A DNA stretch of 64,000 nucleotides from Patescibacteria group bacterium (GCA_004321885.1 SCQK01000007.1:150540-214539); one strand, 5' to 3'. Counted from the stretch's first letter, positions 57,344 to 61,303 are shown. The notes: generated from the sequence alone by a model not told the origin. A program made the numbers and translations.

Positions 57344-57664
57344 CAATTTTGTTACATTCCCGACTTTCCGCCGACTGGCGGACGGGACGGCGCATTATTT
57401 CTAACACGCTCTGCATGTCGCCATGCAGTTCGGACTATATCTTCCCTGAACCTTATTGGTTCGCGGGTCTAGCGTATAGTCTCTGAGGATTCTCTCTTTG
57501 AGAGTCTTTCCTGCTGGTTGTCTGCACTTGCCGCTTTATTACTTATAAAATAAGTAGCGCAAGATACTTTGGTTTCACTCCTAAATGAAACCTTCCAGAG
57601 TTTCCAGCATTTAGCTAGATTTATAGACAGCGCGGTTTGTGGCTAAGATTAGCCAAACTCTTCC
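57344..57664 (-). mobile_element. group I intron, ORF-less (321 nt), at E. coli L2593-like site (GAGACAGT|...|TCGGTC)
   Basis: 5' exon ends U, intron ends G; S-box AAGATATAGTCC present. Confidence 0.65.
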
Positions 57665-57819
57665 ACTGTCTCACGACGTTCTGAACCCAGCTCGCGTACC
57701 GCTTTAATTGGCGAACAGCCAAACCCTTGGCAGCTTCTCCACCGCCAGGATGCGATGAGCCGACATCGAGGTGCCAAACCGGACCGTCTATATGGACTAT
57801 CGGGTCCGATCAGCCTGTT

Positions 57820-58683
57820 CATATTACTTCCCCTATTACTAGGAGTACTGACTATATCTTCATCCCAACTTTGCCCAGTCGGGAGTACGGCATATTGTGG
57901 CGCGCGATTTCCTTCACTATGAATGCGCCACCTCGGCCTTAGGCCTCAGTCGATACGGGGTTCTTCATCAATTTTGTACCGCATGCTTTCTATCACATAC
58001 GGGGCAATTATTTTTTGCAGTTTCCTGGTGTCCTTCACGCAAAATTTCAAATCCATGGCTTTTGTTTTTTTTAATTCCAGCTTTGGGTGTAGATTGAAAT
58101 TTTTCGCGAAGACTCGTTTCAGTCCGCTGATGCTTTCGGCGTTCAGCTTGGACAGATAGATATACGCGGTTTTATCGCGTTTATAATAATATCCATCATC
58201 CATAAACCATACTGCCAATACTAGAGGATCAAATAATTTTTCAATTATTTTTGGAACTTGCTTGTCGCCGTTTTCATAAAACAGCGCATGCAATTTTCCA
58301 AACTCTGGCGATGAATGCGACTGGCATCGGTAATAGGCATATTGTTTCCGCCAAATCGGATTAAAACGCGTCAAATACTTTGGTTTTGATTGCATATATC
58401 GTTCAAGCTCGCGCCACTTCCAGAAAATATATTCTTTCTGACGCGAACTATGCTCCAAACGCAATCGCGCGTTTTTCTCGCCGGTTTTTTGCAAAAAACC
58501 ATCGCCTAATACACAGCCAATCGCTATACTTCTTTCGCGTTGATTCATATGTAATGTAATTTAACGCGATGAAGAACTTCCCACGGTATTCCCCTTCCCG
58601 TTTGGGATTCGGGGTTCACCGTTATTAGCCGTTTTCTTGTTCCGATATTACTACCGGAACGGGACAACAACCCTTTCGGGTCT
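57820..58683 (-). mobile_element. group I intron at the L2449 (omega/I-SceI-type) site GGGGAT|...|AACAGGC with LAGLIDADG ORF
   Basis: Exons rejoin to GGGGATAACAGGCTGAT; S-box GAAGATATAGTCAG. Confidence 0.7.
57946..58548 (-). CDS. LAGLIDADG homing endonuclease (intron-encoded)
   Basis: IGCVLGDGFL plus second motif. Confidence 0.75.
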   Translation of the reverse strand: MNQRERSIAIGCVLGDGFLQKTGEKNARLRLEHSSRQKEYIFWKWRELERYMQSKPKYLTRFNPIWRKQYAYYRCQSHSSPEFGKLHALFYENGDKQVPKIIEKLFDPLVLAVWFMDDGYYYKRDKTAYIYLSKLNAESISGLKRVFAKNFNLHPKLELKKTKAMDLKFCVKDTRKLQKIIAPYVIESMRYKIDEEPRID

Positions 58684-58872
58684 ATCCCCGGAGTAGCTTT
58701 TATCCGTTGATCTTCCACTCTCCTATATGAGGTGGTCGGTTCACTAACTTCCGCTTTCGCGACTGCTCGGGTTGTAGCCCTTGCAGTAAAGCCAGCTTGT
58801 GCGTTTGCGCGTCCAGCTCGATTTCCATCCGAGCTAAGCTGACCTTTGTAAACGCCTCCGTTACATTTTAGG

Positions 58873-59809
58873 CAATTGTGTTACCTTAATTTTCCTAACT
58901 TATATTCCATTTTCGGAATAATATAGGGCCTGATGATATTAACGAATTCCTGCACCGATGACGCGAGCAAGTAAATCTGCTTGCCTTCTTTCTGCTTTCG
59001 CAGTTTGGTTGCTATCTTGTATTTATTCGACAGAACCCTTCGCAATCGGCGCAGACAAATATCGGAATAACATTGTGTGTTTAGAATTAACGCCCGATGA
59101 TGATTTGATTTAATGGAACCATCATCCATAAACCATACTGCCAATCCGAGCGGCGTCAGCCATCGATGAATCAATTTAGGCACGGTCTTCTCGCGGCCGC
59201 GATAGAATTGCGCGGCGTAGAAGCGCAGAGCCGGATGACTCACTGTGTTAAACCAATATTTTTTGTACAGCTTGCCGTTCACTGTCTGGTCTTTGATTTT
59301 AGGAGGAGTTATCACCCAATCCTTGAACTTGTCATAAATCCAATCAACGTATGCCTTTTGGCTAAGTCCGTGCTGGACCATTAACCGATAAGCGACGCCG
59401 GAATTATGATTAGATAGGTGACTGTCTCCCAGTAATGTTCCGACCAGTATCTCACGCTGTACTTTTGTTAATTTCAATCCCTTCTTATACTCTCTTAACT
59501 TCAGAGTATTCATAATTTTAAGGACCAAATTTAATTTGGTGCTCTATGTCGCCATAGAGTTCAGACTATATCATTATCCCGACTAAGTCGGGATACCTGG
59601 CATGTAGTCGTTGAGGGGTCATCCCGATTAAATTGGGAGACTTCCCTGCTGGTTGACCGCAGGCGCGCATTTTCACCCCGACGTAACGTCGGGGTAGCGC
59701 GGCCATACTCCGGTTGTTCTAGCATATAGCCAAGTTTGCTTTCAATGTCGCCATTGAAACGCCCTTCGTGATGTTCCAACATTCGTTGGCGTAACGGACA
59801 TCACGACTC
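58873..59809 (-). mobile_element. group I intron in the domain V region (~E. coli 2260) with LAGLIDADG ORF; boundaries tentative
   Basis: Exons rejoin to GGGGCGGTTGCCT|CCTAAAATGTAACGGAGGCG; S-box ATGATATAGTCTGAAC; contains two CCCGAC...GTCGGG hairpins. Confidence 0.5.
58881..59513 (-). CDS. LAGLIDADG homing endonuclease (intron-encoded)
   Basis: VGTLLGDSHL plus second motif. Confidence 0.7.
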   Translation of the reverse strand: MNTLKLREYKKGLKLTKVQREILVGTLLGDSHLSNHNSGVAYRLMVQHGLSQKAYVDWIYDKFKDWVITPPKIKDQTVNGKLYKKYWFNTVSHPALRFYAAQFYRGREKTVPKLIHRWLTPLGLAVWFMDDGSIKSNHHRALILNTQCYSDICLRRLRRVLSNKYKIATKLRKQKEGKQIYLLASSVQEFVNIIRPYIIPKMEYKLGKLR

Positions 59810-60103
59810 AGGCAACCGCCCCAGTTAAACTACCCACCAGACACTGTCTCCTTTGGCCGATTCAGGTCAAAAGATTAGGCATAAATTCATCTAAGGGTGG
59901 TATTTCACTGTCCCCCGACTAGGTCGGGGTCCCACCTATTCTAAACATAAATAAGCTTATGCCAATATCAAGTTGTAGTAAAGCTTCACGGGGTCTTTTC
60001 GTCTAGTTGCGGGTAGGAGGCATCTTCACCTCCCTTGCAATTTCACCGAGTCCCTCGTTGAGACAGTCGCACTATCGTTATGCCATTCATGCGGGTCGGA
60101 ACT

Positions 60104-60811
60104 CCAATTGTTATCACTGTGTTTCCACAATGTTCAGACTATACTTTCATCTTCCCGACAATATTTAGGAGATCTGTTTTTAAATAGCGGCGCGCTCCGA
60201 TGTTATTCATCGTATAGGCACTGGCTATAATTTCCTTTATACCATTTGTCGACAAGTGAAGATTTGACTTCATTGAGCGACAAATTTTTCTCAATATTTC
60301 AAAGTCATTTTGCTTTGAAGTTCTTAGAGGGTATCTGTCAAAGTGCGGCATGATTTTTTTTATCAAATCATCCAGACTTCGCACCTCGTATTTGTACGTC
60401 TGATCATGACTGTCAAAGCGAATACCGCCACAAGCAAAATAATTTTTCAATTCTTCCAGAACCGATAAATTACGCTTGTTTTGGCTGACCGTGAAACTTG
60501 GTCTGACTTCAATCCCGACGGATAATTTATCGCGTCGTGAGAACGAAACCAGAAAGCTTCCTTCGCCATCAACAATTCCCGAAACGTACCAAGGATTTAT
60601 CTCCATATACTGTCTCCTTTCTTGGGAAGAGCCGGCGTGTTGCCCGCTTTTGGCAGGCCTCATCTTTCGATTCAGTCGTTACGGGGCTTTGCTTCCCAGC
60701 AAAGCTTCCCACGGTATTCCCCCATAGGGGTTCACCGTTATGAGCCGGTTTGCTAATATCGCGTCACCGCGATACTCGGGCAAGTATTATCTCCGACCCG
60801 GAGATTTGTTC
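60104..60811 (-). mobile_element. group I intron at the L1931-like site TTGTCGGGT|...|AGTTCCGACC with LAGLIDADG ORF
   Basis: S-box GAAAGTATAGTCTGAAC near the 3' end. Confidence 0.65.
60139..60606 (-). CDS. LAGLIDADG homing endonuclease (intron-encoded)
   Basis: VSGIVDGEGSF; SD AAAGGAGA before the ATG. Confidence 0.75.
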   Translation of the reverse strand: MEINPWYVSGIVDGEGSFLVSFSRRDKLSVGIEVRPSFTVSQNKRNLSVLEELKNYFACGGIRFDSHDQTYKYEVRSLDDLIKKIMPHFDRYPLRTSKQNDFEILRKICRSMKSNLHLSTNGIKEIIASAYTMNNIGARRYLKTDLLNIVGKMKV

Positions 60812-60831
60812 ACCCGACAAGGAATTTCGCT

Positions 60832-61303
60832 CGACGCTTCCTTTTTAATAGCGTTGGACTATATCTTCATCCCCGACTAAGTCGGGGAGCATAGCGTTTA
60901 GTCTCTGAGGATCCTAAACTGTTAAGCCCCTGTTACTGCGTAGTAACATTTAATCGCAAATGCGAATTATCCTCAATCATTATTTTTATAACACCATCGC
61001 ATAAGCGCTCGCTAAAGCACATCTGCAAAAAATTTTGTAGTAGTTTGAAGGTGATATGATTAATGATTAGAGGGGCCTAACGCAATTTTGTTATTAATAA
61101 CATAATTGCATTAAATTAGTTTCCTGCTGATCATCCCGCTTGGGACTTCCCAGCATATGGCTATGATTGGATTATACCACACATCACTGTGCGGTAAGGC
61201 AGCTTTTTTAATGGCTTTGATTTGATCCTCTGCTGATCACGATTGTTTACATATCGCTATCTCCGTCCCAATCCTTGTGAATTCGTGGGTAAACGAATTC
61301 ACA
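60832..61303 (-). mobile_element. group I intron, ORF-less (472 nt), at the L1917-like site CCTAAGGT|...|AGCGAAATTCC
   Basis: Separated from the next intron by a 20-nt exon; S-box GAAGATATAGTCC. Confidence 0.65.

Follow-up and report, generated by a model that had tools for sequence, protein, structure and literature searches.

The nearest described systems by host are the insertion sequences in rRNA genes of the Candidate Phyla Radiation (CPR) (Brown et al., 2015, cited in PMC11270868; Tsurumaki et al., 2024, J Bacteriol, PMC11270868). According to the latter article, insertions occur in 82% of CPR 23S genes, with up to 16 insertions per gene and a total insertion length of 1,327 bp on average (standard deviation 1,112) and 5,750 bp at maximum. 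Hot spots in the CPR 23S gene include positions 1931, 1952 and 2604, the insertions are removed from transcripts, and one CPR LAGLIDADG enzyme, I-ShaI, cleaves its own insertion site (same source). Here we report on a 23S rRNA gene in a 64,000-nucleotide stretch of DNA, hereafter the window, from a tiny-genome Patescibacteria group bacterium (GCA_004321885.1, SCQK01000007.1:150540-214539). With a probability of about 0.92, this gene contains five group I introns that would splice as set out below, three of them with genes for homing endonucleases, self-splicing and endonuclease activity being predicted properties. A first-pass annotation of the window had proposed five group I introns in a CPR 23S gene, which was borne out by alignment, intron cores and guide sequences. 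The assignment of the host to CPR holds because the TopA encoded in the window matches, with 100% identity, a protein from an NCBI 'Patescibacteria group bacterium' metagenome-assembled genome (MAG), the next TopA matches being 68-73% identical and including Candidatus Magasanikbacteria; the MAG is probably related to the latter.

One bacterial large-subunit rRNA gene was found in the window, on the minus strand at 63378..57075 (6,304 bp), using Rfam and comparison by BLAST and MAFFT with E. coli rrlH. Matches to the Rfam model LSU_rRNA_bacteria formed two minus-strand blocks, 63378..61196 and 60033..57075, and the exon/intron junctions were obtained by BLAST and global MAFFT against E. coli rrlH (locus L001) and then read directly. 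This alignment to an uninterrupted 23S gene, which the first-pass annotation had recommended, resolved all five junctions and gave a gene of six exons and five introns, with insertions of 472, 707, 937, 864 and 321 nt in gene order. The introns sum to 3,301 nt and the spliced rRNA to 3,003 nt, in fair agreement with the ~6.35 kb and ~2.9 kb noted earlier for gene and rRNA; the span initially assigned to the introns, 57344-61303, is bounded exactly by the 3' end of intron 5 and the 5' end of intron 1. By alignment, the introns, which surround the peptidyl-transferase centre in domains IV and V, are located after E. coli U1931, U1951, U2262, U2449 and U2604. Of the sites previously assigned, ~L2260 (2262) and L2449 were correct, whereas those given as L1917, L1931 and L2593-like are really L1931, L1951 and L2604.

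All parts of the gene are on the minus strand. Exon 1 (61304..63378; 2,075 nt; E. coli 1-1931) ends in ...CCUAAGGU and is followed by the ORF-less intron 1 (open reading frame, ORF) at L1931 (60832..61303; 472 nt). Exon 2 (60812..60831), with the sequence AGCGAAAUUCCUUGUCGGGU, is only 20 nt long and 100% identical to E. coli 1932-1951; it is followed by intron 2 at L1951 (60105..60811; 707 nt), which contains the endonuclease gene HE-2. The 20-nt exon (60831..60812) had been noticed before as a spacer between two ORF-less introns; it exists, but separates the ORF-less intron 1 from the ORF-containing intron 2. Exon 3 (59810..60104; 295 nt; E. coli 1952-2262) begins with GAGUUCC and ends in ...GGUUGCCU, and is separated by intron 3 at L2262 (58873..59809; 937 nt; containing HE-3) from exon 4 (58684..58872; 189 nt; E. 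coli 2263-2449; 3' end ...CCGGGGAU). Intron 4 at L2449 (57820..58683; 864 nt; containing HE-4) precedes exon 5 (57665..57819; 155 nt; 85% identical to E. coli 2450-2604; 3' end ...GUGAGACAGU), and the ORF-less intron 5 at L2604 (57344..57664; 321 nt) precedes exon 6 (57075..57343; 269 nt; E. coli 2605 to the 3' end). The lengths of 472 and 321 nt had already been given correctly for the two ORF-less introns. At all five junctions the rejoined exons restore uninterrupted conserved 23S sequence, the predicted ligated order around exon 2 being CCUAAGGU/AGCGAAAUUCCUUGUCGGGU/GAGUUCC, with slashes at the junctions. As first noted from the sequence, U is the last base of each of the five upstream exons and G the last base of each of the five introns. 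Near E. coli positions 138, 272 and 291, exon 1 is expanded by 57-67 nt each, and several helices are shorter than in E. coli.

Each intron has an internal guide that pairs with 5-7 nt of the 5' exon end, with the terminal U opposite G (P1; five of five introns). The guides GCCUUA, GCCCGA, GGGCG, GUCCC and GCUGUCU pair with the exon ends UAAGGU, UCGGGU, UGCCU, GGGAU and AGACAGU, respectively (introns 1-5), and a P10 of 3-4 bp is present in introns 1, 2, 4 and 5. The guide segments, all on the minus strand, are AGCU-GCCUUA in intron 1 (P10-P1; 61204..61195; P10 of 3 bp, P1 of 6 bp including U.G), ACUU-GCCCGA in intron 2 (P10-P1; 60785..60776), GGGCG in intron 3 (59764..59760), GUU-GUCCC in intron 4 (P10-P1; 58668..58661) and ACCG-C-GCUGUCU in intron 5 (57636..57625). 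Guide and exon covary in relatives of these introns: at L1951, the exon ends UCGGGU, UCUGGU and UCAGGU occur with the guides GCCCGA, GCCAG and GCCUGA, and at L2262 the exon ends UGCCU, AUCCU and UCCCU each occur with a matching guide. In relatives of the L2604 intron most guides are GCUGUCU, and the P10 partner tracks the 3' exon (UCGG vs UUGG). The S-box pattern gave five matches against 0.32 expected; the motif previously said to be in every intron, AAGATATAGTC, is exact in introns 1, 4 and 5, while intron 3 has ATGATATAGTC and intron 2 AAAGTATAGTC.

The Rfam model Intron_gpI (RF00028), with a gathering score of 50 bits, scored 81.8 bits for intron 3 (E-value 3.5e-20), 60.3 for intron 5 (9.5e-14), 43.8 for intron 1 (8.2e-9), 21.2 for intron 4 and 17.7 for intron 2, the first three far above chance. 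The covariance-model search proposed in the first-pass annotation thus supported introns 3 and 5 outright and placed intron 1 just below the threshold, with introns 2 and 4 well short of it. Introns 1, 3 and 5, designated class B, align over the full RF00028 model with P3-P9 in place. On the minus strand, the core of intron 1 comprises P7 (60907..60894), P8 (60887..60871) and P7' (60868..60856), with the 3' G at 60832 and a ~188-nt A+T-rich insert in P6. That of intron 3 comprises P7-P3' (59616..59596), P8 (59594..59576), P7' (59575..59562), P9 (59559..59542) and P9.1 (59540..59524), with the ORF 3' of the core and the terminal G at 58873, 8 nt past the stop codon. In intron 5, P7-P3' (57488..57467), P8 (57465..57445), P7' (57444..57431) and P9 (57428..57411) are followed by the 3' G at 57344.

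Between the 5' splice site and the guide, intron 1 has ~100 nt (61303-61195) that include a perfect 11-bp hairpin. A motif in this segment, AAGGAUUGGGACGG, is complementary to the exon directly upstream of P1, CCGUCCUAA, and a related motif, AGGACUGGGAC or AGGACUAGGAC, is found in five other L1931 introns (loci L037, L053, L055, L068 and L073). This recurrence suggests an additional intron-exon pairing.

Introns 2 and 4 belong to another structural class, designated class A, in which the elements are ordered CGGCU-N-AUAACGGUGAA; AAUACCGUGGGAAG; CCCCGUA-W-CGACUGA; two extra hairpins; AAYAYGC with P3'; P8; and GAUGAAGAUAUAGUC. The two extra hairpins occupy the position of P7.1 and P7.2 of subgroup IA introns. 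In intron 2 (minus strand), the 5' part of the core contains P3-P4 (60748..60733), P4'-P6 (60718..60705), P6'-P7 (60686..60672), P7.1 (60671..60662) and P7.2 (60658..60642), and the 3' part P3' (60641..60631), P7' (60149..60135) and P9 (60132..60115), with the 3' G at 60105; the P8 strands, 60630..60624 and 60156..60150, enclose the ORF. In intron 4 (minus strand), P3-P4 (58632..58617), P4'-P6 (58590..58571), P6'-P7 (57966..57946), P7.1 (57945..57935) and P7.2 (57931..57897) are followed by P3' (57896..57887), P8 (57884..57863), P7' (57862..57848), P9 (57845..57830) and the 3' G at 57820.

Support for the class A core comes from an alignment (A1) that excludes the window sequences and comprises 16 independent class A introns without ORFs, all taken from 23S genes in metagenomes. 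In the pseudoknotted, bulged arrangement of P3, P4, P6 and P7, 98.6% of cells were paired and 9 of 18 pairs had compensatory changes; none of 500 shuffles scored as high, and slid partners were 26-42% paired. A search with four motifs recovered 81 distinct class A cores in 87 loci, and a permutation test on these cores agrees, the outer P7 pair being A-U in 44, G-C in 29 and U-A in 5. Once the ORFs are removed, 33 of the 34 invariant core columns of class A are matched in intron 2 and all 34 in intron 4, and each of the two introns forms all 18 core pairs. The poor Rfam scores of introns 2 and 4 can be explained because their ORFs are located inside core hairpins and their structural class differs. 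Since a motif search in seven related loci found ~12 class A cores, only one of which (in L016) overlaps a group I match at gathering score, the sub-threshold scores reflect the Rfam model as much as the sequences. At gathering score, RF00028 also misses nearly all IA-like introns (L1951, L2449 and ~2500-2600) in loci L010, L043, L048, L049, L056 and L073. Introns 2 and 4 thus appear to represent a second, subgroup-IA-like ribozyme class that Rfam mostly misses. Failure of models to fold P1-P9, named at first as grounds for refutation, is therefore an unsafe test with RF00028 alone, which misses class A even in ORF-less introns. Because class B fits the Rfam model and class A fits a core supported by covariation, all five insertions in the 23S gene are group I introns.

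The three LAGLIDADG ORFs recognised in the first-pass annotation were confirmed by one match to Pfam PF00961 and two to PF03161, all on the minus strand. HE-2 (60139..60606) is a single-motif LAGLIDADG_1 protein (PF00961, 90.4 bits, E 1.6e-25). It comprises 155 amino acids from the ATG at 60606, which is preceded by the Shine-Dalgarno sequence AAAGGAG at 60620..60612, while the longest ORF starts at 60663 (174 amino acids). The ATG at 60606 is most likely the start, and an independent gene call on contig L089, from the Logan assembly of the same sample, uses it too. The gene is located in the P8 loop of intron 2 and its stop codon TAG lies within P7'. Relatives in PDB are I-SmaMI, I-OnuI and the homodimeric I-Vdi141I, and HE-2 is presumably a homodimer. 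A scan of a genome collection with HE-2 returned six loci with 30-43% identity, including an Acidimicrobiaceae MAG and archaea, and one L1951 relative (L002); it was no help in finding close relatives.

HE-3 (58881..59513) is a double-motif LAGLIDADG_2 protein (PF03161, 158.8 bits, E 1.6e-46) of 210 amino acids from the ATG at 59513, or 215 from the TTG at 59528, encoded downstream of P9 and P9.1, and I-SceI is its closest solved structure (E 5.5e-29). HE-4 (57946..58548), also LAGLIDADG_2 with a double motif (200 amino acids; PF03161, 125.6 bits, E 2.4e-36), belongs to the I-SceI family (E ~1e-11) and is 29% identical to HE-3. Its gene occupies the P6 loop of intron 4; the last codons cross P6' and J6/7, and the stop codon TGA lies inside the P7 5' strand (CGACUGA). 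The acidic motif residues are kept in all three proteins, in IVDGEGS (HE-2), LLGDSH and FMDDGS (HE-3), and VLGDGF and FMDDGY (HE-4). Judged by sequence, HE-2, HE-3 and HE-4 are intact LAGLIDADG homing endonucleases that would be expected to be active. Exact-protein look-ups found a record for HE-2 from the ATG at 60606 and none for HE-3 (with either start) or HE-4.

Related loci were collected in a metagenome scan with HE-3. It recovered more than 559 relatives, and the 80 best-matching loci, with identities of 40-79%, are 23S genes; this sample was chosen for the L2262 intron and is biased accordingly. In all 50 related loci with mappable junctions, the L2262 intron is located at exactly 2262/2263 and shares the layout of intron 3, with the ORF 3' of the core and guides that covary with the exon. 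The third site had been called unusual; given more than 559 relatives of HE-3 and 50 of 50 mapped loci at 2262/2263, L2262 is instead a common CPR site. L1931 has an intron in 23 related loci and none in 17, L1951 in 12 and none in 25, L2449 in 3 and none in 29, and L2604 in 11 (282-1,908 nt) and none in 33. Introns related to intron 4 occur at L2449 in L048 and L073, and in seven related loci L1931 and L1951 introns flank an identical 20-nt exon. Other intron sites in these 23S genes are at or near 1917, 1931, 1951, 2449, 2500, 2504, 2511, 2532, 2546, 2584/2593, 2604 and 2657. Synteny via the neighbouring PPi-phosphofructokinase gene was considered and rejected, as homologues of this protein are scattered over many phyla and provide no usable anchor.

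Among 38 loci spanning E. coli 1900-2700, the median was three insertion events and 2.7 kb, and the maximum six events and 5.1 kb. At least as much intron DNA as the 3.3 kb of the window was present in 11 of these 38 full-length loci, and the published maximum is higher still (5,750 bp; PMC11270868), so the description of the intron load as unusually heavy was not upheld. The load is above average, yet within the known range for CPR, and a 23S gene with several introns is an ordinary case of a well-documented habit of this lineage.

In L018, the closest relative of the 23S gene, L1951 is unoccupied and L1931 holds a different intron, which contains an ORF. The intron-less L1951 allele of this locus, GGGU/GAGUUCC (more fully, UUGUCGGGU/GAGUUCCGACC), is identical to the ligated exons predicted for the window, which places the 3' end of intron 2 at G60105. 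Exon 3 starts with G (60104; E. coli 1952), whereas A is found at this position in E. coli and in most of the related loci. Two alternatives, a 1-nt deletion at A1952 and a second-G 3' splice site for intron 2, were considered and rejected, since L018 and 13 matches in other loci also read G there. Because L018 lacks the intron and has this G, it is a lineage polymorphism and no splicing scar; G60104 still pairs as G.U in P10 of intron 2.

It had also been suggested that all five introns share a core and that the ORF-less ones lost their ORFs after homing. A common class holds for introns 1, 3 and 5, whereas introns 2 and 4 form another, and no endonuclease remnants were detectable in introns 1 and 5. 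A recurring match to 'ADNQQERL' in intron 5 was rejected as a decayed ORF, being the conserved ribozyme segment GCAGACAACCAGCAGGAAAG (P5'/P4'/P6) read in frame. Relatives carry ORF-containing versions of both the L1931 and the L2604 intron, with which ORF loss from introns 1 and 5 would fit, and such loss is plausible, though no more than that because no decayed ORF was found in either intron.

In the mechanism that we propose, each intron would fold into its group I core after transcription, and P1, which has a U.G wobble at the splice site, would arise by pairing of the internal guide with the last nucleotides of the 5' exon. This site would be attacked by an external guanosine, and the freed exon end would then attack after the terminal G of the intron, joining the exons; the predicted product is a contiguous 3,003-nt 23S rRNA. 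HE-2, as a single-motif enzyme, and HE-3 and HE-4, as I-SceI-like double-motif monomers, would cut intron-less alleles at the same site, and recombinational repair would spread the intron. Introns 1 and 5 are ORF-less versions of introns that have endonuclease genes in other CPR genomes.

Several points weigh against this interpretation. Splicing and homing of this gene are both deduced from its sequence, and some bacterial 23S group I introns have been reported as unspliced (Simkania; according to the title of reference 28 in PMC11270868). The Rfam scores of introns 1, 4 and 2 (43.8, 21.2 and 17.7 bits) are under the threshold of 50, P7.1, P7.2 and the subgroup assignment of class A are based on complementarity judged by eye rather than on a subgroup-specific model, and intron 3 has no evident P10 beside its guide sequence. 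In introns 2 and 4, the ORFs extend into the core helices P7, P7' and P8 and constrain both functions, an arrangement that is uncommon yet known (PMC1995217). Some of the five could accordingly be group I introns by descent that no longer splice alone, needing a maturase or host cofactor, or splicing poorly and slowing ribosome production. The overlapping ORFs, the lack of an evident P10 in intron 3 and, in intron 1, the ~188-nt P6 insert together with the ~100 nt that separate 5' splice site and guide all fit such a loss, and LAGLIDADG maturases and host factors are established for organellar group I introns, e.g. CYT-18 and the mL2449 intron of N. crassa (PMC3984707). We nevertheless regard this as unlikely: all invariant core positions and pairs are intact, the same architectures occur in dozens of genomes, and the 23S exons are well conserved, so that the introns must be efficiently removed.

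That the insertions are instead intervening sequences of the enterobacterial type, excised by RNase III without ligation so that the 23S rRNA is left fragmented, is hardly credible. Intervening sequences of this kind are known from bacterial 23S genes, probably including other sites of the gene in CPR (23IS2 and 23IS4; PMC11270868), but the insertions described here interrupt universally conserved single-stranded or core segments (1931, 1951, 2262, 2449 and 2604) rather than helix tips, they have group I cores, guides with a U.G pair and a terminal G, and no long terminal stem forms between their ends. An assembly artefact, in which rRNA fragments and introns of different community members were joined in the MAG, has to be considered because rRNA operons from metagenomes are often misassembled and the sequence is known from one sample only (SRR8426592). 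It is very improbable, since the Logan assembly of SRR8426592 contains the 1,296-nt contig L089, 100% identical to window 61333..60038, which extends from the last part of exon 1 through intron 1, the 20-nt exon and intron 2 into exon 3, and the contig of the window runs on into single-copy genes on one side. Moreover, a hairpin that is rare elsewhere, CCGACYUAGUCGG, recurs both within the gene (exons 1 and 3, introns 1 and 3) and beyond it, which argues for one genome of origin. Five group I introns, three of them with homing endonuclease genes, therefore remain our preferred interpretation of the locus.

The hairpin CCGAC-YUA-GUCGG occurs in seven copies in the window, against 0.1 expected, and is usually further flanked by C/G. 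Five copies are within the 23S gene, three in exons (61500-61512, 61365-61377 and 59915-59927) and two as P8 of introns (60873-60885 in intron 1 and 59579-59591 in intron 3); those at 41305-41317 and 63720-63732 are outside the mature 23S. In the extended form CCCGAC-YUA-GUCGGG it caps three helices, namely H63 (at its tip), H78 and one in domain IV close to E. coli 1850, where the usual arrangement in relatives is a GCAA, UUCG or UUUA loop on a different stem. The 575 kb of related 23S loci contained a single copy, in the closest relative L018. The hairpin might be a lineage-specific recognition element, for instance for a protein aiding rRNA maturation or intron folding, or a small module spread by gene conversion between the rRNA and its introns; that it is either of these, more than a sequence habit of the genome, we consider quite improbable. 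Around the copy at ~41311, the intergenic region 40926-41446 gave no known structured RNA, only sub-threshold chance matches. A similar terminator-like hairpin with a CUUAG loop is located at ~41405-41440, and 41340-41440 (plus strand) includes a tiny lysine-rich ORF of 15 amino acids, MAKKKAKKKGGKKRK, with a G-rich Shine-Dalgarno-like stretch on its 5' side and a strong terminator-like hairpin and U run on its 3' side.

Downstream of the 23S gene, at a distance of 112 nt, is a 5S rRNA gene (56856..56962, minus strand; Rfam RF00001, 83.3 bits). No 16S rRNA or tRNA gene was found in the 620 nt upstream of the 23S gene (window 63379-64000), and the 16S gene therefore appears to be unlinked or distant. 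Beside the 5S gene, overlapping ORFs on opposite strands, of 497 (plus) and 482 (minus) amino acids, occupy 55269-56762 with 56% G+C; neither has a Pfam or NCBIfam match, and likely at most one of them is real. The GyrA gene (32142-35780, plus strand; 1,212 amino acids) contains an intein of ~390 amino acids at about residues 115-508, identified by the NCBIfam intein N-terminal splicing region and by Pfam Intein_splicing (E 8e-23); with it, the window holds selfish splicing elements of two kinds.

A single gene adds little in itself, being one more multi-intron CPR 23S. On such genes, rRNA annotation and amplicon primers will not work before the introns have been mapped; a corrected map is supplied here. 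Because the Rfam model overlooks the IA-like class even in ORF-less introns, introns are probably undercounted in censuses based on RF00028, for example the one that assigns 45% of CPR 23S insertions to group I. With more than 559 relatives, the L2262 intron and its I-SceI-like endonuclease form a large conserved family that could yield new meganuclease specificities.

Compared with other known systems, the pair of introns around the 20-nt exon has a counterpart in the 23S gene of Coxiella burnetii (Raghavan et al., 2007, cited in PMC11270868; Table 1 of PMC1995217), where a very short exon in domain IV (helix 69-71) likewise lies between two group I introns. The introns at L1951 are alike, with 720 nt and a LAGLIDADG ORF of 157 amino acids in Coxiella and 707 nt and an ORF of 155 amino acids in the window, whereas the upstream partner is at L1917 in Coxiella, with an exon of 34 bp and two introns in all, and at L1931 in the window, with an exon of 20 nt and five introns. 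Introns at L1931 are known from Thermotoga, Simkania, the cyanobacterium Synechococcus and organelles (Haugen et al., 2007, PMC1995217); they share the site and the U/G rule, and their association with LAGLIDADG genes is also seen in relatives of the window intron. Unlike the introns of that study, intron 1 is ORF-less, and its guide is separated from the 5' splice site by ~100 nt of additional hairpins. The yeast mitochondrial omega intron, with I-SceI, occupies the same site as intron 4 (after U2449) and encodes an enzyme of the same family, LAGLIDADG_2, but I-SceI is distant from HE-4 (E ~1e-11) and closer to the L2262 enzyme HE-3 (E 5.5e-29), and HE-4 differs in being located in the P6 loop and overlapping P7. 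With the CPR insertions described in PMC11270868, the window has in common that group I introns cluster around the peptidyl-transferase centre in the 3' portion of the 23S gene, that their ORFs are of the LAGLIDADG_1 and LAGLIDADG_2 families, that introns with and without ORFs occur together, and that a gene has several introns. The accessible part of that article does not name sites 2262 and 2449, and both recur in the related loci that we examined. The locus, with five introns and 3.3 kb against a published CPR mean of 1.3 kb and a maximum of 5.75 kb, differs in nothing essential from those already described.

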